Positions 10,790 to 54,134 of a stretch of 64,000 nucleotides of DNA are shown here, piece after piece (position 1 is the stretch's first letter; each line of letters opens with the position of its first letter). A model generated the notes under the pieces. It had not been told where the DNA came from. It saw only the letters and a program-made list of their open reading frames with translations, and searched no databases. Source of the stretch: an uncultured Clostridium sp. (GTDB taxonomy: Bacteria; Bacillota; Clostridia; TANB77; CAG-508). The stretch is taken from positions 123,967 to 187,966 of the forward strand of contig CANDIF010000002.1 of NCBI GenBank assembly GCA_947384775.1, read 5' to 3'. Position numbers and translations under genes: made by a program.

Positions 10790-11164
10790 TTATTCTACTA
10801 ATATTACAACATTAGCCACTGCATATTCATGGCAATGCGAAATACTTATATCAATATTCTTTATATTCTCAAATTTAATCCCGACAAACTCTACTGCTGG
10901 ATTTCCATTTTCATCATTTATTACTTGTGCATTATGCCAGCTTATATCAAACTTATTTTTAAGCAATGCTGATACTGCCTTGAAAATTGCCTCTTTTGCT
11001 GCAAATCTTCCTGCATAATGATAATATTTTGCTGCTCTTCTGCTTTCGCAGTATTCCTTTTCAGCTGGTGTATATACCAAATTGGTAAATCTCTCCCCTG
11101 AATGTTCTATTGATTTTTTTATTCTTTCTATTTCAATTATATCTGTGCCACATAATACTCTCAT
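10790..11164 (-). CDS. acpS: Holo-[acyl-carrier-protein] synthase AcpS
   Basis: MRVLCGTDIIEIERI...RFAAKEAIFKA matches the AcpS family (GxD...RFAAKEA). The start is at the internal ATG that has an AAAGGAAGGG ribosome-binding site. The longer ORF in the track has no such site. Confidence 0.8.
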   Translation of the reverse strand: MRVLCGTDIIEIERIKKSIEHSGERFTNLVYTPAEKEYCESRRAAKYYHYAGRFAAKEAIFKAVSALLKNKFDISWHNAQVINDENGNPAVEFVGIKFENIKNIDISISHCHEYAVANVVILVE

Positions 11165-11237
11165 ATTGATTGCCCTTCCTTTTATACATTTAAAGTTATA
11201 TATTCTAGATTTGCTAAAATATATAACTTCATTTTCA

Positions 11238-12740
11238 TTATTTTGTATAATAAATTCCTTCATTTGATAAGTGCCATTGTCCAATAAAATCGGTATATAA
11301 ATTACTGTCTAAATTCACAGTTGGTTCTAGTATAAGCTTTCCTGCTCTATCTATGCAACCCCATTTTCCATCTTTTTTTACTGCTGAATATCCCACTTCA
11401 TTTTGTTCTTTAGCATCATCATAAATATAATCTACAACTACATCTCCTGACACATTCACAAAACCATATTTTCCATTTTTTTCACTTACAAATAATGTAT
11501 TTTTGGTTAGTAAATCTCTATTTGATTTTTCTTCAAATCTATAATTATAGTATTTATTTTGTCCATCTATTCTTGCCTTTATATATTCTTCTTCAAATAC
11601 AAATATTCCTTTTAATTTTTGAGCTAAATTACTATCAAAAATAACTGTCTCCGTTTCTGTTAAATCTCCTACTAAAATACTCTTATCTTCTACATAATAC
11701 ATATTTGTATATTCAAATGGAATAATTACTTCGTTATCTATATTTATAATTCCTGTTTTGCCTTCTTGTTTTGCTATATAGTAAACTGAGAATGCATATT
11801 CTAAATTTTCATATGTTAGTCCTACTTTTTCTTCGCCCTTTGTTGTTATAATCCCGTATTTTCCATTTTTTTCAACTACTACATTTTCTCCTTTTGCTGA
11901 AATATAATTATATGTATTGTTTATCACTTCTCCATTTTTCTTTATCAATGTCCATACATTATCCACCATTACTGCATATGTTTCTGTATTTCCTAAATAT
12001 TTTATTTCTTTATATGCAGGTGTTACTATTATTGTTCCACTTGTACTAATAACTCCTGAATTATCATTTTCATCTACTATTATGTACTCGTTTTTATATC
12101 CTTCTTTTAATGTCTTTATTTCTTTATATTCTATTTTTATAATTTCTTGCCCTTTGCTGTTTACTAAGCCTACTTTGCCATCTTTCTTTACTATAAAATT
12201 TTCTTTAACGCTTTTCAATGTTGTTATTTCATCATAATCACAGTTTAATAAAATATTTCCTTCTAAATCTATCAAACCATATTTTCCATTTTTATAAACT
12301 CTTAAAATATTGTTTTCATACCATATGTTTTGTTTTGAGTCGAAATTTTCTAGCACTTCTACTCTTTCATAATCAGTAAATAATCTCTCATTTTTTTCAT
12401 TCATTACTGATGTTTTATACTCTCCTGTTTGTTCATTTACATCATATACACTAACAAATATTGCTTTTTCTTTATTTGGAACTACTATAATTTCATCTTT
12501 CATTGCTGCAATTATTTCTTGTCCCTGGCTATTTATTACTCCCCATTTTCCATTTGAATAAACTGTGTAATATTTGTTTTTAATCTCAACAACAGGAGCA
12601 ATTTCACTTTTTAAAATTTTCTTTATAGATATTATAATCATTACTATAACTGCTATTGTAATTATAACGCCAAAAACTTTTTTCATATTCAACTTTGGTT
12701 CGTCATATCTTTTTCCTTTTCCCATATCTATCACCATCAA
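11238..12740 (-). CDS. WG-repeat containing membrane-anchored protein
   Basis: N-terminal TM helix followed by many K(W/Y)G(V/L/F)I(D/N)..G repeats (KWGVINSQG, KYGLIDLEG, KYGFVNVSG, KWGCIDRAG). Confidence 0.55.
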   Translation of the reverse strand: MMVIDMGKGKRYDEPKLNMKKVFGVIITIAVIVMIIISIKKILKSEIAPVVEIKNKYYTVYSNGKWGVINSQGQEIIAAMKDEIIVVPNKEKAIFVSVYDVNEQTGEYKTSVMNEKNERLFTDYERVEVLENFDSKQNIWYENNILRVYKNGKYGLIDLEGNILLNCDYDEITTLKSVKENFIVKKDGKVGLVNSKGQEIIKIEYKEIKTLKEGYKNEYIIVDENDNSGVISTSGTIIVTPAYKEIKYLGNTETYAVMVDNVWTLIKKNGEVINNTYNYISAKGENVVVEKNGKYGIITTKGEEKVGLTYENLEYAFSVYYIAKQEGKTGIINIDNEVIIPFEYTNMYYVEDKSILVGDLTETETVIFDSNLAQKLKGIFVFEEEYIKARIDGQNKYYNYRFEEKSNRDLLTKNTLFVSEKNGKYGFVNVSGDVVVDYIYDDAKEQNEVGYSAVKKDGKWGCIDRAGKLILEPTVNLDSNLYTDFIGQWHLSNEGIYYTK

Positions 12741-12772
12741 TACTATATCATATGTACTACCTATTTTTCAAG

Positions 12773-13888
12773 TTATTCCGACATTATTTTTCTTATAATT
12801 CTATTGGATATTGTACTTAAAATTTCATAATTTATTGTTCCACATTTTTTTGCTATATCTTCTATTTTTATATTCTTATTATCCCAAATATAAACATCAT
12901 CATCTATTTTTACATTTTCTATATCTGTAACATCTATCATAAAACTATCCATGCATATAGTACCAACTATTGGAGCTAGATTTCCGTTTATTACAACTTT
13001 TCCTTTGCCACTTAGACTTCTTCTAATTCCATCTGCATATCCTATTGGAACATTTGCAATTTTCGACTTTCGTTTAGTTATAAATTTTCTGCCATAACTT
13101 ATACTTGTTCCTTCTTCAACAGTTTTCATAAATGATATTTTAGATTTTAAAACACATGCTGGCTCTAATTTAACCGTTGTTTCTATATGTTCGTCTGGGA
13201 AATATCCATATAACATGATTCCTGGTCGTATCATATTACCAGGGAAGTCTCCTAATTGCATAATTGCTGCACTGTTTGCACAATGTACATATTTTATGGT
13301 AGATATTTTACCTTTTACATATTCTACTGCTTTATCAAATGTTTCCATCTGTTTTCGGGTATATTCTAAATCTGTATCGCTTGTTGCAAAATGCGTATAT
13401 ATACCTGTTATTTTGATATTTTCTAGTTTTTTACTTTTCTCAATAAAATCATTTAGATTTTCTATTTGTATTCCTGTTCTCCCCATCCCTGTTTCAATTT
13501 CTATATGTACATTTATAATTTCATTTGCTCTTACTGCCTCATAATTTAGTTCTTGTAAAAATTCAATATAGCATACTCCTGGTGTAATATGGTACTTAAT
13601 AATGTTTGGGACTTCTTCTTTTGCAGGTTGATTTAAAACTACTATTTCCCCCTCATATTCTAAATACTCTCTTTGTGTGATTCCTTCATCAACAAAAGCA
13701 GTTCCTATAATATCTATGCCTAATTTATCAATAAAAGCTTTTACATTTCTAGCTCCTATTCCATATCCACTAGCCTTTAATACTGGTAATATTTTTTTAT
13801 CTGGATGCAATTTCTGAATTTCTTTGTAATTATGCTCCATAGCATCTAAGTTTATCAATAATTCTGATTGTCTATTTTTCTCATACAT
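12773..13888 (-). CDS. alr: Alanine racemase
   Basis: 371 aa with the PLP-binding motif (PVLKASGYGIG) and a racemase C-terminal domain. Confidence 0.85.
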   Translation of the reverse strand: MYEKNRQSELLINLDAMEHNYKEIQKLHPDKKILPVLKASGYGIGARNVKAFIDKLGIDIIGTAFVDEGITQREYLEYEGEIVVLNQPAKEEVPNIIKYHITPGVCYIEFLQELNYEAVRANEIINVHIEIETGMGRTGIQIENLNDFIEKSKKLENIKITGIYTHFATSDTDLEYTRKQMETFDKAVEYVKGKISTIKYVHCANSAAIMQLGDFPGNMIRPGIMLYGYFPDEHIETTVKLEPACVLKSKISFMKTVEEGTSISYGRKFITKRKSKIANVPIGYADGIRRSLSGKGKVVINGNLAPIVGTICMDSFMIDVTDIENVKIDDDVYIWDNKNIKIEDIAKKCGTINYEILSTISNRIIRKIMSE

Positions 13889-15812: not shown

Positions 15813-16208
15813 ATGGCAGAAAAAACATCATTATTAGGAACAGGTAGAAGAAAGAATTCTATTGCAAGAGTTAGATTAGTTAATGGTAATGGTAAAATTA
15901 CTATTAACTCTAAAGATATAAATGAATACTTTGGTGTTGAAACACTTAAAGTTATAGTAAAACAACCTTTAACAGCAACTAATACATTAGATAAATTCGA
16001 TGTTATTTGTACTGTAAAAGGTGGAGGAATTAGTGGTCAAGCAGGTGCTATTCGTCATGGTATAGCAAGATCTTTATTACAAGCAAATTCAGAATACAGA
16101 CCAATTTTAAAATCTAGTGGATTCTTAACAAGAGATGCTAGAATGAAAGAAAGAAAGAAATATGGTATGAAGAAAGCTAGAAAAGCACCACAATTCTCTA
16201 AAAGATAA
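15813..16208 (+). CDS. rpsI: 30S ribosomal protein S9
   Basis: Ends with ...[12 protein letters not shown], the canonical S9 C-terminus. Confidence 0.9.
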
Positions 16209-16250
16209 TTACAAGCCTATTTGGGCAAGAGGTCAAAACATATATACAAA

Positions 16251-16284
16251 GCGGTAATCTATTTAGATTACTGCTTTTCTTTTG
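16251..16284 (+). terminator. Intrinsic terminator of the rplM-rpsI operon
   Basis: gcggtaatctatttagattactgc followed by ttttctttt. Confidence 0.6.
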
Positions 16285-16380
16285 TTAATGCAATTTTACT
16301 CCAAGCCAAATTTATGGTATAATTATATTATGTAAATATCCTTAGCAAATTTCAAACTAAAAATTTAGGAGGAATCCGCA

Positions 16381-16905
16381 ATGAAAACCAAGCACGAAAG
16401 TTCTACCCAGAAGGCCCCTACCGCCAAGAAGCTCCAGATTTTCCGCTTCAGCATCATCCCGACCATCATCAGATCTGTACTCTTGCTTCTTTTCTTACTG
16501 TTCATCCGTTTCGTGACGCTCCCGCAGTTCTTCTTCTACTTCATCATTTATGAGGATCAGACGCCCATCATTTTCATCACCCTCAAAATCGTCCGTCTGC
16601 TCTTCCTGATGCTGGTCCTTCTCACCATCATCTTCTGCGTCCGTACCGCATGCAAGAAGCTCCGCATCAGAAAAGGAACGCTCATGTATCGGCATGGACT
16701 TCTCATCAAGAAAACCAAGGTGTTCCCTCTTCCGAGCGAAGTGGAATATTCCTTTAAGCAGTCCTTGATTCAGAAGATTGTCGGAGTTTCGACTCTGACC
16801 ATTACCCTACCAAAAGGAGGAAAGAAGAAGGAGAAAACGCTTGTTTTCAGGAATCTCAAAAACGAGGAGCAGTTCGTTAAGCTTCTCACTCAGAACTACA
16901 CTTGA
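16381..16905 (+). CDS. Membrane protein with a bacterial PH (bPH_2/YdbT-like) domain, carried on a GC-rich foreign segment
   Basis: Two N-terminal TM helices followed by a PH-like beta-rich domain. About 48% GC with strong GC3 codon bias (CTC, CCG, GTC, ACG), unlike the roughly 27% GC host. It has its own AGGAGG ribosome-binding site and a TGgTATAAT-like promoter upstream. Confidence 0.6.
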   Translation: MKTKHESSTQKAPTAKKLQIFRFSIIPTIIRSVLLLLFLLFIRFVTLPQFFFYFIIYEDQTPIIFITLKIVRLLFLMLVLLTIIFCVRTACKKLRIRKGTLMYRHGLLIKKTKVFPLPSEVEYSFKQSLIQKIVGVSTLTITLPKGGKKKEKTLVFRNLKNEEQFVKLLTQNYT

Positions 16906-16977
16906 TCAATAGCGCCTATGCCATCTGATGTACAATAATTTGTTGAATTCCATTTTTGTTTAAGAACTTTTCGAAAT

Positions 16978-17027
16978 AGCACCCGAGCCATCTGCTTACA
17001 AAGCAGGTGGCTCGGGTGCTATTTTTA
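16978..17027. terminator. GC-rich 20-bp-stem terminator that closes the foreign segment and abuts the holA stop codon
   Basis: AGCACCCGAGCCATCTGCTT-ACAA-AGCAGGTGGCTCGGGTGCT followed by ATTTTT. The loop core CATCTGCTTACAAAGCA is shared with two other hairpins in the window. Confidence 0.7.
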
Positions 17028-18065
17028 CATTAAACATAATATTGATTCTAACCCAATATTAACATCTATTTTACCTTGTTTTGAATTATAATCTAAATCT
17101 ATTAATTTCTTTAATATTTCCTTTAATTCTGATTTCTTGAAATATCTAGCTTGTCCTTTGTATTTTGTGGTCAAAAACATCTGATTTGGCTTTAAATCTA
17201 AACTTTCAGCAATGTTCATGTTATATTCTTCTGCCAAAATTACCATATATATCTTTTTTAAATGATTATACAAAGTTATTAATATTTTTTGTATTGGTTC
17301 TTTGTTATATAGAAGCTCTTTTAATATTTGTAATGATTTAGTTGTATCTTTCTTTCCTATACTATCTGTTAAATCAAATATTACACTATCTAATTCTTTT
17401 ATTGATAACTTATCTATATCTTTTTTGGTTATTGTTCCATTTTCTCCTGTATATTCTATTAGTTTTCTTATCTCATTTATTAAAACTAGCATGCTTGTTC
17501 CACATGTTTCTATAAAATATTGCAATGTACTTTCATCTATATTCACCTTATATCCATTGCAAATTGCTTTAATTCTTTTTGATATTTGTACTGGTTTTAA
17601 TTTAGTAAATTCACAGGAAATACCTAAATTATCAATTGTCTTTTGCAATTCATTTTTATCTACTTCTTGTTCTATAAATAGCAAAATTACTGTTTCTTTT
17701 ATAATTTCAATATTTTCTTTGATATATTTTGCAATTTTTTCTTGTAAAGTTTTTTCTTTATTTGTACTTTTGGTTTTTGTAGTATCTTTTTTCTTAGATC
17801 TTCCCTCTTTTTTTAATAATCCTGATTTCTTAATTATTATTAGTTTTTTCTCATATCCAAATGCTGGAGTTTCTATGTCTGATATAAGATTTTGAACATT
17901 TTTATCATCTATTTGTATATAATTTATACCTGGCAATAATTCACCAAATAACCTTTTTATTTTCTTTACACAAGTTTCTAACAAAAACTCTTCTTCTCCA
18001 TATAGCAAGTATAAACTTGCTAATTCTCCTTTTTTTAATTTCTGTTCTAATTCTTCTTGTAACAT
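17025..18065 (-). CDS. holA: DNA polymerase III subunit delta (HolA)
   Basis: 346 aa. N-terminus ...LYLLYGEEEFLLE... and the overall length fit HolA. Confidence 0.75.
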   Translation of the reverse strand: MLQEELEQKLKKGELASLYLLYGEEEFLLETCVKKIKRLFGELLPGINYIQIDDKNVQNLISDIETPAFGYEKKLIIIKKSGLLKKEGRSKKKDTTKTKSTNKEKTLQEKIAKYIKENIEIIKETVILLFIEQEVDKNELQKTIDNLGISCEFTKLKPVQISKRIKAICNGYKVNIDESTLQYFIETCGTSMLVLINEIRKLIEYTGENGTITKKDIDKLSIKELDSVIFDLTDSIGKKDTTKSLQILKELLYNKEPIQKILITLYNHLKKIYMVILAEEYNMNIAESLDLKPNQMFLTTKYKGQARYFKKSELKEILKKLIDLDYNSKQGKIDVNIGLESILCLM

Positions 18066-28216: not shown

Positions 28217-28558
28217 TTAAATAAAATTTCGATAAAAAAAATTAAATATTTCTTTTTTATGAACTTCAAAAAATAAATTAGAATTTTGCTTTCCACTAAT
28301 TATGTATCTTATAAAAACTGTATTAAGCTTTTCTGAAGCAACGTAAATTATTCGATAGTTCTCACAGATTCGTTCTCGGTAATATTTGTTTGGTATCTCA
28401 TGGACATATCTTCCAATATATGGTGCATATTTTATTAAATCAATCAATTTATATATATTGTTTATAACCCTATTTGCATAATTATCAGAAATCTTTGATG
28501 TAAACTCTGTAATATCTTCTATATTACCTTGAGCCTTATCCGATATTGAGATTTTCAT
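28217..28558 (-). CDS. Type II toxin-antitoxin system toxin, ParE/RelE family
   Basis: 113 aa with a ParE-like pattern (...LIDLIKYAPYIGRYV...ENYRIIYVASEKLNTVFIRYI...). It overlaps the upstream small gene by 23 nt. Confidence 0.6.
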   Translation of the reverse strand: MKISISDKAQGNIEDITEFTSKISDNYANRVINNIYKLIDLIKYAPYIGRYVHEIPNKYYRERICENYRIIYVASEKLNTVFIRYIISGKQNSNLFFEVHKKEIFNFFYRNFI

Positions 28559-28727
28559 ATTTTCGCATTAAGTCCTCTTTTGACTCTTCTAATGTACATA
28601 CTCTACCATTTTTTATATTTTCTTCGCTTTCCTCTAACATCATGAAAAAAACTAAGTTATATATAAAATCGTATAATGTATTTTCTTCTGTTTCCACTTC
28701 ATTTAAAGTTCTTTTTATAAATTCCAT
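28536..28727 (-). CDS. Putative cognate antitoxin (small acidic protein)
   Basis: 63 aa acidic protein translationally coupled to the toxin. Its ...NGRVCTLEESKEDL... C-terminus resembles antitoxin C-termini. The family assignment is uncertain. Confidence 0.45.
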   Translation of the reverse strand: MEFIKRTLNEVETEENTLYDFIYNLVFFMMLEESEENIKNGRVCTLEESKEDLMRKYENLNIG

Positions 28728-28729
28728 TT

Positions 28730-52295: not shown

Positions 52296-52356
52296 ATTTG
52301 ATTTTTGCTCCTAAGTATGTTATTATATATAAATACTACTTATAGGAGGTTTCGAT

Positions 52357-52572
52357 ATGCCAAACGGATGTAAATGTAGTGAATGTGAGCTCAGAGCCGA
52401 GTGTCCTCGGCTCAAGCAGCTGATCGACAGTGGTGCACTCGCTGCCGCACCGCCTCCGCAGACTGTTTCTGCGGAAAGTGACATCAAGCGTGCTGCCCCC
52501 ACTGCTGAGGACTGGGAGGACTTCTGGTACAACTTCAACGACCCCTATTCTCCCGACCACTCTCAGAGGTAA
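52357..52572 (+). CDS. Small Cys-rich protein (71 aa; CxCxxC...C N-terminus, Pro/Ala-rich middle, acidic aromatic C-terminus) on a GC-rich foreign segment
   Basis: TAGGAGG ribosome-binding site. About 55% GC with GC3-rich codons. It is followed by a GC-rich terminator that abuts the gatB stop codon. Confidence 0.45.
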   Translation: MPNGCKCSECELRAECPRLKQLIDSGALAAAPPPQTVSAESDIKRAAPTAEDWEDFWYNFNDPYSPDHSQR

Positions 52573-52619
52573 CCATTCCAAATTCCAGCCGGCACAGCAT
52601 TTTAAGTAGCACAAAACCT

Positions 52620-52656
52620 ACACCCCACTTGCTTACTGCGAGTGGGGTGTTTCAAT
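52620..52656. terminator. GC-rich hairpin terminator ACACCCCAC-N13-GTGGGGTGT shared by the foreign small gene and convergent gatB
   Basis: 9-bp GC-rich stem with a T-run after it. Confidence 0.55.
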
Positions 52657-54096
52657 TTACTTATTCAATTCTTCTAAAAACATTTTATTTAACATTTGTG
52701 GATTTGCTTTTCCTTTAGTCTCTTTCATAGCTTGTCCTACTAAAAATCCTAATGCTCTATCTTTTCCTGCTTTATAGTCTACTATTGAATTTGGATTTGC
52801 TTCCAATATTTTTTGTACTACTTCTTTTATTGCTCCTTCATCAGAAATCTGAATCCATCCTTTTTCTTTTATTATTTGCTCTGGGCTTCTTGGATTTTCA
52901 AATAGCTCATCTAATACTTTTTTTGCTATGCTAGAACTAATAGTTCCTTTATCTATAAGTATTACTAACTCGCCTAGTTCTTCTGCAGTAAAAGGTATTT
53001 CATTTGGGTCTTTTTCTTGTTCATTTAATATTTTTGTTATATCTGTCATTATCCAGTTACTTACTGCTTTTGGATTGTTACATACTTTTGTTGCACCTTC
53101 AAATAAATCTGAAAAATATTTTGAAGAAATCAATATATTACTATCATATTCTGGTAACTTGAATTCTTGCATATATCTTTCTTTTCTACTTTCTGGCATT
53201 TCTGGTAATGTTTTTCTAATATCTTCTATCATTTCTTCTGATATCCTTATTACTGCCAAATCTGGTTCTGGGAAATATCTATAATCTTGTGCATCTTCTT
53301 TATCTCTCATTGAAAAAGTTTTTCCTGATACTTCATCCCATCTTAATGTTTCTTGCTCTATTTTTCCACCTTGCTCTAAAATATCAATTTGTCTTTCTGC
53401 TTCATATTCTATAGCTCTAGTTATTGATCTAAAAGAATTCATATTTTTCATTTCTGTTCTTGTTCCTAATTTTGTGTCTCCTTTTTTTCTTACAGAAACA
53501 TTAACATCTGCTCTTAATGATCCTTGCTGCATCTTACAATCTGAAACTTCTATATATTCTAATATTGATTTTAACTTCTTTAAATAGCTATCTACTTCCT
53601 CTGTACTTCTTAAATCTGGCTCTGATACTATTTCTATTAGTGGAACTCCTGCTCTATTTAAGTCTACTAGACTTCCGCTTCCATATTCATCATGATTTAA
53701 TTTTCCTGCATCTTCCTCAATATGAATTCTAACCAATCTTATTTTCTTAGTTCCATTTTCTGTTTCAATTTCTACATAACCATGTTCACAAAGTGGCATA
53801 TCAAATTGTGATATCTGATATGATTTTGGTAAATCAGGATAGAAGTAGTTTTTTCTATCATTTTTGCTGTTTCTTGCTATTTCACAATTTGTTGCTAGTC
53901 CTGCTTTTATAGCATATTCAACAACCTTTTTATTAAGCACAGGTAACGTCCCTGGCATTGCCATACATATTGGACAACAATGTGTATTTGGTTCTCCACC
54001 AAATTCTGTAGGGCAAGAACAAAATATTTTTGTTTTTGTTGAAAGCTCACTATGAACTTCTAAACCTATTATCATTTCATAATCTTCTCTTGACAT
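52657..54096 (-). CDS. gatB: Asp-tRNA(Asn)/Glu-tRNA(Gln) amidotransferase subunit B
   Basis: IIGLEVHSELSTKTKIFC... and a GatB/YqeY C-terminal domain. The start is set at the internal ATG (MSREDYEMIIGLEVH). Confidence 0.9.
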   Translation of the reverse strand: MSREDYEMIIGLEVHSELSTKTKIFCSCPTEFGGEPNTHCCPICMAMPGTLPVLNKKVVEYAIKAGLATNCEIARNSKNDRKNYFYPDLPKSYQISQFDMPLCEHGYVEIETENGTKKIRLVRIHIEEDAGKLNHDEYGSGSLVDLNRAGVPLIEIVSEPDLRSTEEVDSYLKKLKSILEYIEVSDCKMQQGSLRADVNVSVRKKGDTKLGTRTEMKNMNSFRSITRAIEYEAERQIDILEQGGKIEQETLRWDEVSGKTFSMRDKEDAQDYRYFPEPDLAVIRISEEMIEDIRKTLPEMPESRKERYMQEFKLPEYDSNILISSKYFSDLFEGATKVCNNPKAVSNWIMTDITKILNEQEKDPNEIPFTAEELGELVILIDKGTISSSIAKKVLDELFENPRSPEQIIKEKGWIQISDEGAIKEVVQKILEANPNSIVDYKAGKDRALGFLVGQAMKETKGKANPQMLNKMFLEELNK

Positions 54097-54134
54097 ATTT
54101 ATTATCATTCCTTTCAAAAATCTCAATCAAAGTT

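Follow-up and report, generated by a model that had tools for sequence, protein, structure and literature searches.

A GC-rich gene for a small bPH_2 membrane protein resident beside holA in AT-rich gut Clostridia

The bPH cassette between rpsI and holA

The window analysed here, a 64,000-nt stretch of DNA from an uncultured Clostridium sp., carries between rpsI and the convergent holA gene a single open reading frame for a small membrane protein with a bPH_2 domain, hereafter the bPH gene (Table 1). The unit is a self-contained accessory cassette, in which its own extended −10 promoter and an AT-rich leader precede the GC-rich ORF and a long terminator is shared with holA. The TATAAT hexamer is invariant and the −35 region conserved in all 11 copies of the alignment, among which are deeply diverged types and both members of a tandem pair. 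The rplM-rpsI terminator is also kept in the relatives L019, L020 and L052, and the AT-rich element of the 3' UTR is conserved in the window, L011, L012 and L020, and partly in L059. The downstream hairpin has 24-nt arms that are 96% complementary (23 bp) with a folding energy of −45.3 kcal/mol (z = −13.6); the sequence of its stem varies between species, with a long GC-rich stem in each. A preliminary description of this DNA had pointed to a promoter and a ribosome-binding sequence specific to the gene and to a GC-rich hairpin abutting the holA stop codon, all of which are recovered here. A riboswitch in the leader was considered and discarded, the leader RNA folding no better than shuffled sequences (z = +1.1) and matching no Rfam family.

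Table 1. Features of the bPH locus and of the other hairpin-bearing units, in positions of the window
Feature	Position	Strand	Remarks
rplM-rpsI intrinsic terminator	16248..16277	+	AT-rich host-type stem, from terminator scan; upstream border of the unit
Extended −10 promoter	16295..16323	+	TTTACT-17-TATAAT with upstream TG; 10/12 consensus matches; predicted transcription start ~16330
AT-rich 5' leader	16324..16380	+	26% GC counted together with the promoter
Ribosome-binding site	16367..16372	+	AGGAGG within the leader, 8 nt upstream of the bPH ATG
bPH CDS	16381..16905	+	525 nt, 174 aa; YdbS-like protein
3' UTR	16906..16973	+	32% GC; conserved AT-rich element CAATAATTTGTWGAATTCCATTTTTGTTTAAGAACTTT
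Long GC-rich hairpin terminator	16974..17024	.	T-run after the stem; abuts the holA stop codon
holA (DNA polymerase III delta)	17025..18065	-	Convergent neighbour anchoring the locus across the clade; stop codon 17025-17027, directly after the hairpin
Solo hairpin	29088..29117	+	Same hairpin family; no GC-rich ORF adjoining
GNAT cassette	31384..31990	-	Promoter and leader, GNAT ORF 31433-31918, hairpin 31384-31417
Third cassette	52300..52650	+	71-aa ORF 52357-52572 (GC 0.56), own ribosome-binding site, hairpin 52620-52650

In base composition, segment 16376-17027 (45.4% GC, compared with 28.7% for the whole window) ranks first among 2534 overlapping 652-nt windows, those away from it having a mean of 28.6% GC, a standard deviation of 3.2% and a maximum of 40.8%. 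The segment had been announced at about 48% GC: it is strongly GC-rich, but that value is attained by 300-nt windows, which top out at 47.7-49%. The bPH ORF has a GC content of 0.465 and a GC3 of 0.674, against a GC3 of 0.153 ± 0.032 across the window's remaining long ORFs (z = 16.4) and of 0.09 and 0.15 in its neighbours rpsI and holA. It favours CTC, TTC, ATC, ACC, CAG, AAG and CGN codons, where host genes favour TTA, TTT, ATA, ACA, CAA, AAA and AGA. The GC3-rich, non-host codon usage reported at the outset thus stands, and the windowed GC and GC3 analysis proposed with it places the segment at the top with a significant shift. Structured non-coding RNAs are the usual reason for GC-rich islands in AT-rich genomes. 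Such a cause was rejected here: Rfam returned nothing on the segment at gathering or E-value level except chance hairpin matches, the three-base periodicity of the ORF is strong (GC1 0.42, GC2 0.30, GC3 0.67), and dN/dS is well below 1.

The encoded protein and its putative function

The product is a YdbS-type inner-membrane protein, predicted to have both ends in the cytoplasm, one transmembrane (TM) hairpin and a C-terminal bPH_2 domain. Pfam bPH_2 matches residues 94-167 with 31.2 bits for a cut-off of 22 (E = 2.7e-7), and it matches 12 of the 19 family members, with a best E of 1.2e-10. Two hydrophobic segments show as hydropathy maxima at residues ~20-57 and ~60-94. In an AlphaFold model built from 19 sequences (an earlier input of five sequences gave a pLDDT of 55), helices at ~26-55 and ~58-91 form the TM hairpin, followed by the bPH_2 domain at 92-174, which is predicted to adopt the PH superfold, a beta-sandwich capped by a C-terminal helix. 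Basic residues flank the TM hairpin on both cytoplasmic sides, the connecting loop (YEDQTP) is acidic, and the predicted part exposed outside is a loop of ~5-7 residues only. The N-terminus is a basic tail with a short strand and a conserved MKTKxESS...IFRFSI motif. The initial reading of two TM helices and a bacterial PH fold is upheld by these results, and the HMM search that it recommended against PF03703 is the above-cut-off match given here. Searching the PDB with the family profile gave no match, Foldseek of the model against the PDB gave no significant E-value, and NCBIfam yielded no match above its cut-offs. By region, dN/dS is 0.40 for the TM hairpin and 0.11 for the PH domain.

The closest known systems are YdbS of Bacillus subtilis, DdE of the Enterococcus faecalis EntDD14 cluster, LnqC of lacticin Q and Orf7 of aureocin A53, all of them membrane proteins of small size that carry a single PHb2/bPH_2 domain (COG3402, PF03703; PMC8657885). 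The bPH protein shares with them the size class of 141-174 aa and a TM hairpin placed before a single cytoplasmic bPH_2 domain. It differs by its extra basic N-terminal tail and motif, and the similarity is at the domain level only, the nearest non-family matches having E-values of 1e-6 to 1e-4. Unlike the genes of this group, the bPH gene has no adjoining three-domain YdbT-like partner, bacteriocin structural gene or ABC transporter; it is solitary or in tandem with its own paralogue, and it is hypervariable and compositionally aberrant.

In these systems, DdE/DdF are required for leaderless bacteriocin export and self-protection, Orf7/Orf8 and LnqC/LnqD are YdbS/YdbT-like (PMC8657885), and ydbST is part of the sigma-W envelope-stress regulon (PMC3498285). 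By analogy, we tentatively suggest that the bPH protein might handle membrane-active peptides, in bacteriocin export, self-protection or orphan immunity, a function that would explain its diversifying evolution. The neighbours infC, rpmI, rplT, rplM, rpsI, holA and ruvC are all housekeeping genes. No YdbT-type partner with three bPH_2 domains, as found in ydbST, ddEF and lnqCD, is present in the rpsI-holA interval, which holds one or two small bPH genes, and YdbT-like proteins (467-533 aa) appear as remote database matches only. Among the neighbours, neither a bacteriocin structural gene nor a dedicated transporter was found, and the PADLOC defence models gave zero matches for the GC-rich ORFs of the window. 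The proposed function therefore relies on distant family analogy.

The locus among relatives and the fate of its composition

The preliminary description took the bPH gene for a recently acquired single-gene insertion and proposed a comparison of the rpsI-holA region in close relatives, which was performed. The rpsI-X-holA arrangement is found in 22 contigs of the window's own species and in species whose bPH proteins are 77, 72 and 69% identical, and each of the diverged homologues P0012, P0018, P0023, P0009, P0005 and P0010 is oriented convergently to holA. All relatives in which the rpsI-holA junction was detected carry, convergent with holA, a homologous GC-rich gene preceded by a homologous AT-rich promoter and leader, and none of them has an empty site. 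More distant relatives lack the bPH gene but have a different gene order, so that they provide no empty site. The dS of the bPH gene (0.67-0.99) compares with that of holA (0.74-1.1) and ruvC (0.5-1.05), and its dN/dS of 0.13-0.30 indicates purifying selection. A HolA-based scan of JGI metagenomes gave one short close locus only. Across the gut Clostridia MAGs examined (holA at least 73% identical), the site 3' of holA has the bPH gene as its resident, and this gene belongs to a very small family, seen beside holA wherever the context is readable.

Searches for a donor gave 14 matches among 1.84 billion cluster representatives (~15 billion proteins), the full-length ones being in the clade only, and no relatives in IMG/VR, INPHARED or PLSDB. 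The window has neither direct repeats nor mobility genes, and the nearest tRNAs lie 14 kb from the bPH gene. The L054 allele, which lies beside GC-rich genes, was dropped as a donor hint, the assembly being a chimera joined inside rpsI. A recent horizontal insertion of a single gene into the rpsI-holA spacer, its GC being an un-ameliorated donor signature, would fit the extreme compositional contrast with its sharp borders, the self-contained unit with its own promoter and terminator, and a codon usage resembling that of a genome of ~45-55% GC. We consider it almost certainly wrong, given the gene at the same site in every junction-bearing relative with a dS equal to that of the flanks, the AT-rich promoter and leader homologous across all deep types, the lack of repeats and mobility genes, and the absence of a donor from the protein, phage and plasmid collections. 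The comparison thus did not confirm an insertion, and "recently acquired" does not hold. Note that the relatives' copies are themselves non-host in composition and that the GC shift is significant; since these copies keep their non-host composition, it is to be read as old and maintained rather than as a fresh import.

The locus is also hypervariable. Between hosts, bPH proteins are 17-81% identical, versus 73-88% for HolA, and tandem bPH pairs are found in L050 and L074. In one species, represented by L052/L053 and L055/L019 with flanks 99.7-100% identical, two mosaic alleles occur, in which 100%-identical blocks alternate with 59-62%-identical ones of dS 1.7-2.6 and dN/dS ~0.2, each mosaic allele having been recovered in two independent assemblies. 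The 100%-identical middle block has a GC3 of 0.63, and the gene ends of L019-type alleles are less GC-rich. Ten contigs of the window's species, 99.3-100% identical, have zero SNPs in the bPH gene and thus yield no within-species spectrum. No region of the gene with dN/dS > 1 was detected, and across the whole diverse family there is no stretch sufficiently conserved for profile-based locus searches. A diversity-generating retroelement or targeted hypermutation was rejected on the presence of all 12 substitution classes between mosaic alleles, the saturated dS and low dN/dS of the variable blocks and the lack of repeats. The family evolves by birth and death together with recombination: it has four or more deep sequence types, its members stand alone or in tandem, and mosaic alleles occur within one species, with promoter, leader and N-terminus homologous in all. 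Hypervariable loci under diversifying or balancing selection with mosaic recombination include bacteriocin-immunity loci and surface or receptor genes. The bPH locus resembles them in its deep types in close hosts, tandem paralogues and mosaic alleles; it differs from them in having no region with dN/dS > 1, a predicted outside loop of so few residues and a persistent compositional anomaly, which is not known as a feature of such loci.

The amelioration model of Lawrence and Ochman holds that the composition of recently transferred genes ameliorates. Here, GC3 is 0.43-0.77 in 12 of 12 bPH copies versus 0.06-0.20 in their neighbours. Host four-fold sites have 6-10% GC and a strong/weak base (S/W) memory between species of 0.09-0.29, i.e. 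71-91% of it is lost, whereas the four-fold GC of the bPH gene lies at 0.54-0.61 in each of the four window-type lineages. The bPH four-fold sites have reached 68% of their own saturation with S>W and W>S changes of 14 and 10, respectively. Host-like decay, even from 100% GC, would leave at most 0.37-0.57, although for the closest species pair modelled decay from this start almost reaches the observed value. These figures come from ~50 four-fold sites per gene pair, a two-state model and parsimony polarisation at dS ~1, and the host four-fold estimates may include some shadow ORFs. Parsimony polarisation on holA gives W>S 68 versus S>W 6, an artefact; as this polarisation is biased at dS ~1, the host-gene result is used qualitatively only. 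Overall, the bPH copies display no compositional decay. The bPH gene is similar to classical genomic islets by its atypical GC and codon usage and its accessory function, but unlike them it has kept its composition while host synonymous sites were nearly randomised, and it has neither mobility signatures nor a patchy presence in junction-bearing relatives.

One ancient transfer of bPH paralogue(s) from a GC-rich Firmicute to the clade ancestor, followed by slow and unfinished amelioration with no maintaining force, is in our view unlikely. Unopposed S>W change predicts a bPH dS about threefold that of host genes, and the observed one is equal or lower; bPH four-fold sites are still at 54-61% GC, their S>W and W>S changes being in balance, where host sites have lost most of their S/W memory; and the AT-rich promoter, homologous throughout the types, suggests that these diversified within AT-rich genomes. 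Such a transfer would nevertheless be consistent with the absence of the gene from more distant relatives, with the range of GC3 between copies, as if these were at different stages of decay, with the less GC-rich ends of the L019-type allele, and with the widespread occurrence of bPH_2/YdbS-like proteins in Firmicutes (PMC8657885).

The GC enrichment is limited to the CDS and the hairpin, the promoter and leader having 26% GC and the tandem-copy spacers 23-24%. GC-biased gene conversion, in which biased mismatch repair at a recombination hot spot (divergent alleles, tandem paralogues) lifts GC, should as a regional bias also lift the poorly conserved array spacers and UTRs, which stay at 23-32% GC, and blocks shared at 100% identity by the alleles, the middle one for instance, are no less GC-rich. 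The effect needed, a GC3 shift from ~0.1 to 0.7, is to our knowledge far beyond any reported in bacteria. We therefore hold this process to be very improbable, even though recombination and tandem paralogues are demonstrated at the locus, W>S changes are inferred to be raised and S>W changes lowered, as a conversion bias would have it, and recombining bacterial genes tend towards higher GC3 (Lassalle et al, 2015; PMC4450053).

We infer that the GC-rich codon usage is a stationary and actively maintained trait of the CDS and hairpin stems, and no remnant of a recent transfer. Directional pressure towards G/C would amount to roughly S = 2-3.5 at each synonymous site. As the array-internal spacers are host-like, selection at the codon or mRNA level is preferred to regional biased gene conversion as the probable cause. 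No established mechanism accounts for S = 2-3 at each synonymous site in an accessory gene whose expression is probably low, and the literature provided nothing directly comparable on persistently GC-rich genes in AT-rich genomes. To the full explanation, an old resident accessory cassette that evolves by birth and death and recombination and whose GC is maintained, we assign a probability of roughly 0.6.

Atypical GC is routinely taken as a sign of recent horizontal transfer, an inference that fails at the bPH locus: a gene can retain a foreign look over the whole time in which the synonymous sites of its neighbours are nearly randomised. If maintenance is real, particular genes of an AT-rich bacterium are under a strong force on codon or GC content, which bears on whether selection or biased conversion sets bacterial GC content and on the reliability of amelioration clocks. 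The locus besides offers a compact natural example of a hypervariable YdbS-like gene in uncultured gut Clostridia, and it could be a lead to a peptide-immunity or envelope function not yet described.

The hairpin family and the other cassettes of the window

The hairpin behind the bPH gene belongs to a family that shares the apical motif CAYYTGC...GCARRTG. Only four long GC-rich hairpins of this kind occur in the 64 kb, and the motif is present in all four (0.01 expected in shuffles). The bPH segment had been counted as one of four similar segments: three cassettes made of an ORF plus a hairpin are retained, but the fourth segment, at 58745-59200, is GC-rich only as the 3' part of a longer gene and is no cassette. 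The ORF of the third cassette has no family match. The GNAT cassette (ORF with GC 0.41 and GC3 0.39) behaves like the bPH cassette: its orthologue in L078 is 67% identical versus 89-99% for the flanking proteins, its dS between the window and L078 is 1.06 versus 0.34-0.92 for the flanks, and its promoter, leader and hairpin are nearly identical in both.

Integron gene cassettes consist of a promoterless ORF and an attC site with R/L core sites (GTTRRRY), in an array beside intI. The cassettes of the window are comparable in that an ORF is followed by a conserved-type imperfect palindrome, one hairpin family lies behind unrelated ORFs, and a solo copy exists. In contrast to integron cassettes, every ORF comes with a promoter of its own, the hairpins are near-perfect with a T-run, as in terminators, and the cassettes are dispersed, with no integrase or array in the window. 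No R/L core sites were seen on reading the hairpin sequences by eye, and a transposon or integron origin was discarded on the lack of repeats, integrase and core sites. The "morons" of lambdoid phage genomics are promoter-gene-terminator units with a composition unlike that of their neighbours. The bPH unit is likewise a single ORF, with a promoter of its own on one side and a strong intrinsic terminator on the other, and contrasts sharply in composition, but it lies between the core genes rpsI and holA at a position conserved across species, and it has no phage homologue.

The shared hairpins bear on another possible source of the GC content, recurrent allele replacement, in which homologous recombination would repeatedly bring in the CDS plus hairpin from an unsampled reservoir of higher GC (another taxon, a phage or a plasmid); the conserved promoter and N-terminus on one side and the terminator and holA on the other would serve as anchors, and the composition would be refreshed, not maintained in place. 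Both the replacement itself and this refreshment between anchors we judge improbable. Sharp switches between 100% and ~60% identity in the single-species mosaics, the restriction of GC enrichment to CDS and hairpin, the hairpin family common to unrelated cassettes together with its solo copy, and the second context of a GNAT homologue (L079) would all agree with it. However, the family members with a readable context are all in the clade beside holA, IMG/VR, INPHARED and PLSDB gave nothing, the only apparent GC-rich context is the chimeric L054 assembly, and the dS of window-type genes follows that of the host flanks.

Returning to maintenance in place, it is conceivable, though doubtful, that these AT-rich gut Clostridia harbour a class of small accessory cassettes with a native AT-rich promoter and leader, a GC-rich ORF and a characteristic long GC-rich hairpin, whose GC dialect is actively maintained over long evolutionary spans. 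In such a class, S of ~2-3.5 per synonymous site would hold against a ~10:1 AT mutation and selection regime, and the GC dialect could uncouple cassette expression or mRNA survival from host genes; alternatively, conversion targeted to the CDS, or cassette exchange via the shared hairpin, might be at work. Such a class would have the bPH gene beside holA as its hypervariable flagship. Two further observations concern the GNAT unit: the 22-nt core of the solo hairpin is identical to that of the GNAT hairpin, and L079 carries a GNAT homologue in another genomic setting.

The GC-rich unit between rpsI and holA

Segment 16376-17027 has a GC content of 45.4%, peaking at 47.7-49% in 300-nt windows, against 28.7% for the whole window, and ranks first among 2534 windows of equal length (maximum elsewhere, 40.8%). 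It carries the bPH gene, encoding a YdbS-like membrane protein, whose ORF displays GC1, GC2 and GC3 values of 0.42, 0.30 and 0.67, respectively, the last at z = 16.4 relative to the window's remaining long ORFs (0.153 ± 0.032). Codon choice is opposite to that of the host, as seen for TTC (94% versus 13%), ATC (68% versus 3%), CTC (41% versus 0%) and CAG (100% versus 13%). The gene has its own promoter, ribosome-binding site and hairpin, with the holA stop codon immediately beyond the hairpin and its T-run. This composition and these signals indicate that the self-contained GC-rich unit noted in the preliminary description is real, but the true unit begins at the promoter near 16295 and not at 16376. 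We found no direct repeats flanking the unit, no tRNA near it and no Rfam match within it.

Features of the window and, in the last three rows, of relatives' loci (own coordinates)
Feature	Coordinates	Strand	Remarks
acpS and alr	10790-13888		~3-5 kb upstream of bPH gene
rpsI	15813-16208	+	5' neighbour of bPH ORF
rpsI terminator	16248-16277		AT-rich hairpin, distinct from bPH hairpin
Extended -10 promoter of bPH unit	16295-16323	+	sequence signal
bPH ribosome-binding site	16367-16372	+	AGGAGG
bPH ORF	16381-16905	+	525 nt, 174 aa
3' UTR element	16921-16960		CAATAATTTGTWGAATTCCATTTTTGTTTAAGAACTTT
bPH hairpin	16974-17024		24-nt arms, -45.3 kcal/mol, z = -13.6; T-run next
holA	17025-18065	-	convergent 3' neighbour of bPH ORF
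Three small ORFs	28217-28954	-	overlapping/adjacent; 113, 63, 74 aa
Solo hairpin	29088-29117		GGCACATCTGCTTTACAAAGCAAATGTGCC
XRE-like gene	29302-29586		94 aa
GNAT acetyltransferase cassette	31384-31990 (ORF 31433-31918)	-	ORF GC 0.41; own extended -10 promoter, GC-rich hairpin
71-aa ORF cassette	52300-52650 (ORF 52357-52572)	+	GC 0.56; own AGGAGG; GC-rich hairpin 52620-52650
Gene convergent with 71-aa ORF	52657-54126		
415-aa protein gene	58745-59992	-	prepilin-type N-terminus, AT-rich repeat domains, Cys-rich ~150-aa end
102-aa ORF	61504-61812	-	basic; GC 0.395, GC3 0.34
zf_Tbcl gene region, L020	5730-6500		
zf_Tbcl gene, L057	959-1126		
zf_Tbcl gene, L074	55-222		

The AT-rich element that follows the bPH stop codon and precedes the hairpin is also present in four relatives' loci (L011, L012, L020 and, in part, L059), where its conservation exceeds that of much of the bPH coding sequence.

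Age and variability of the holA-adjacent locus

All genomes compared are metagenome assemblies. The exact bPH protein is present in 65 index blocks of the assembly collection, with an infC-rplM-rpsI-X-holA-ruvC context in all 22 contigs read. Only four sequence-word homologues occur among 5.8 billion proteins (99, 77, 72 and 69% identical), at the identical site in other species, and HMMER, run in full over 1.84 billion cluster representatives, returned only 14 matches, seven of them full-length small proteins and the remainder domain-level, to YdbT-like proteins. All family members with a readable context (P0012, P0018, P0023, P0009, P0005 and the pair P0007 and P0010) run convergently towards holA, and their hosts are uncultured gut Clostridia with AT-rich genomes. 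Every copy, even of the most diverged types and in either position of a tandem pair, is preceded by a homologous AT-rich promoter, in which TATAAT is invariant, and by a homologous leader and ribosome-binding site. Relatives whose HolA is at most ~75% identical have another gene order after holA and no bPH-type gene, and no empty rpsI-holA junction was found among relatives. Given the same holA context in other species and no empty junction, the gene is a long-standing resident of this site, and we reject the recent insertion initially proposed. Recurrent import from an unsampled reservoir remains a rival explanation of the composition, weakened in that no outside copy was found among the cluster representatives or in the viral and plasmid collections IMG/VR, INPHARED and PLSDB.

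The locus is hypervariable. Among ten genomes, HolA pairs are 73-88% identical versus 17-81% for the best bPH pairs, and at least four deep bPH sequence types are present. Tandem bPH pairs occur at two loci (L050 and L074), with a separate promoter and hairpin for each copy. In one species, represented by L052/L053 and L055/L019 (flanks 99.7-100% identical over >3 kb), there are two alleles, each in two independent assemblies. They are identical over the first 45 nt, over 80 nt in the centre and over the final 42 nt together with the terminator, and diverge in two blocks (59-62% identical, dS 1.7-2.6, dN/dS ~0.2), a mosaic that points to recombination between functional alleles or paralogues of ancient divergence. 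Hypermutation as its source was discarded since all substitution classes are present.

Several relatives have a zf_Tbcl zinc-ribbon gene (55 aa, AT-rich) immediately 5' of the bPH promoter, within an ~800-nt extra block between rpsI and the cassette in L020 and close to an IS30-like transposase (rve) in L057, so that the region upstream of the cassette is itself plastic. One metagenome contig, L054 (ERZ16268058 scaffold_55623), could pass for a donor context: it switches mid-rpsI from GC-rich genes (GC3 0.73-0.84) to the AT-rich locus, and was discarded as an assembly chimera.

Probable maintenance of the GC-rich codon usage

GC3 is 0.43-0.77 in 12 of 12 bPH copies examined and 0.06-0.20 in their neighbours. 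Across four window-type species, synonymous divergence of bPH equals that of holA and ruvC (dS 0.67-0.99, 0.74-1.1 and 0.5-1.05, respectively). Four-fold-site GC is 54-61% in every lineage for bPH and 6-10% for host genes, an estimate that may contain a few shadow ORFs; the between-species memory of the G/C (S) or A/T (W) state is 0.32 for bPH, which has covered 68% of the distance to its own saturation, and 0.09-0.29 for host genes. Substitutions in bPH are balanced (S>W 14, W>S 10); sites per gene are few, and dS near 1 limits the polarisation of changes. Had bPH decayed as host genes do, its four-fold GC would be at or below 0.37-0.57 even from an initial 100% GC. From four-fold GC, memory and decay we infer that W>S substitutions are ~4-8 times commoner, and S>W ~2-4 times rarer, in bPH than in host genes; in a two-state model with few sites, this translates into a directional force per synonymous site of about S = 2-3.5. 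Plain slow amelioration remains a rival weakened by this saturation argument; a composition maintained rather than fading is best supported.

The enrichment is limited to translated sequence and hairpin stems, GC being 26% in promoter and leader, 32% in the 3' UTR and 23-24% in tandem-copy spacers, which speaks against a mutational or conversion bias acting on the region as a whole. GC-biased gene conversion remains a contender weakened by the host-like spacers, and the pattern favours a codon- or mRNA-level effect, or exchange of coding sequence and hairpin as a unit.

Overall, the best-supported reading is that bPH is a resident, clade-restricted YdbS-like family anchored at the holA 3' end, with actively maintained GC-rich codon usage. 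In this reading it evolves by duplication, loss and recombination, under purifying but relaxed selection (dN/dS among the four window-type species 0.13-0.30 overall; by region, TM hairpin 0.40 and PH domain 0.11).

The bPH protein and other GC-rich cassettes

Residues 94-167 match Pfam bPH_2 (31.2 bits; gathering cut-off 22), as do 12 of 19 family members. Judging by hydropathy and charge, both termini are cytoplasmic and only a ~7-residue loop (YEDQTP) is exposed outside, an architecture of the YdbS type; the structure is a predicted one. YdbS/YdbT-like pairs (DdE/DdF, LnqC/LnqD, Orf7/Orf8) are required for leaderless bacteriocin export and self-protection (PMC8657885), and the sigma-W envelope-stress regulon includes ydbST (PMC3498285). 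Neither a YdbT-like partner nor a bacteriocin gene lies near bPH, and PADLOC gave no match to it. By analogy only, a peptide-immunity-like role might be envisaged, which would fit the diversification. In B. subtilis, acpS is co-transcribed with ydbS-ydbT (PMC3498285); the nearby acpS faintly recalls this arrangement, probably by coincidence.

The GNAT cassette has the same anatomy and behaviour as the bPH cassette. Its orthologue in a relative's locus (L078) lies in the same neighbourhood, the protein being 67% identical versus 89-99% for flanking proteins (dS 1.06, flanks 0.34-0.92; GC3 0.41 versus 0.10-0.17), with promoter, leader, first codons and hairpin almost unchanged. A remoter homologue with other neighbours (L079) is GC-rich too (GC3 0.45). 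The 71-aa ORF, whose product is rich in Cys, Pro and acidic residues and has no match in Pfam, NCBIfam or PADLOC, lies just before the end of a convergent gene. The 415-aa protein gene is a compositional chimera within a single ORF (GC 0.45 in the part for the Cys-rich end versus 0.28 in the 5' part) with an AT-rich terminator of host type. The 102-aa ORF has no family match; it may count as a fifth compositional outlier, though a weaker one, or be no gene at all.

The whole window contains only four long GC-rich hairpins, three ending GC-rich ORFs and one solo, and all four share the apical motif CAYYTGC...GCARRTG (0.01 expected from shuffles). The solo hairpin shares an identical 22-nt core with the GNAT hairpin 2.3 kb away and may be left over from a lost cassette or be a hairpin element that is mobile. 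It lies in AT-rich intergenic DNA between the XRE-like gene and three small ORFs that look like a toxin-antitoxin-type module.
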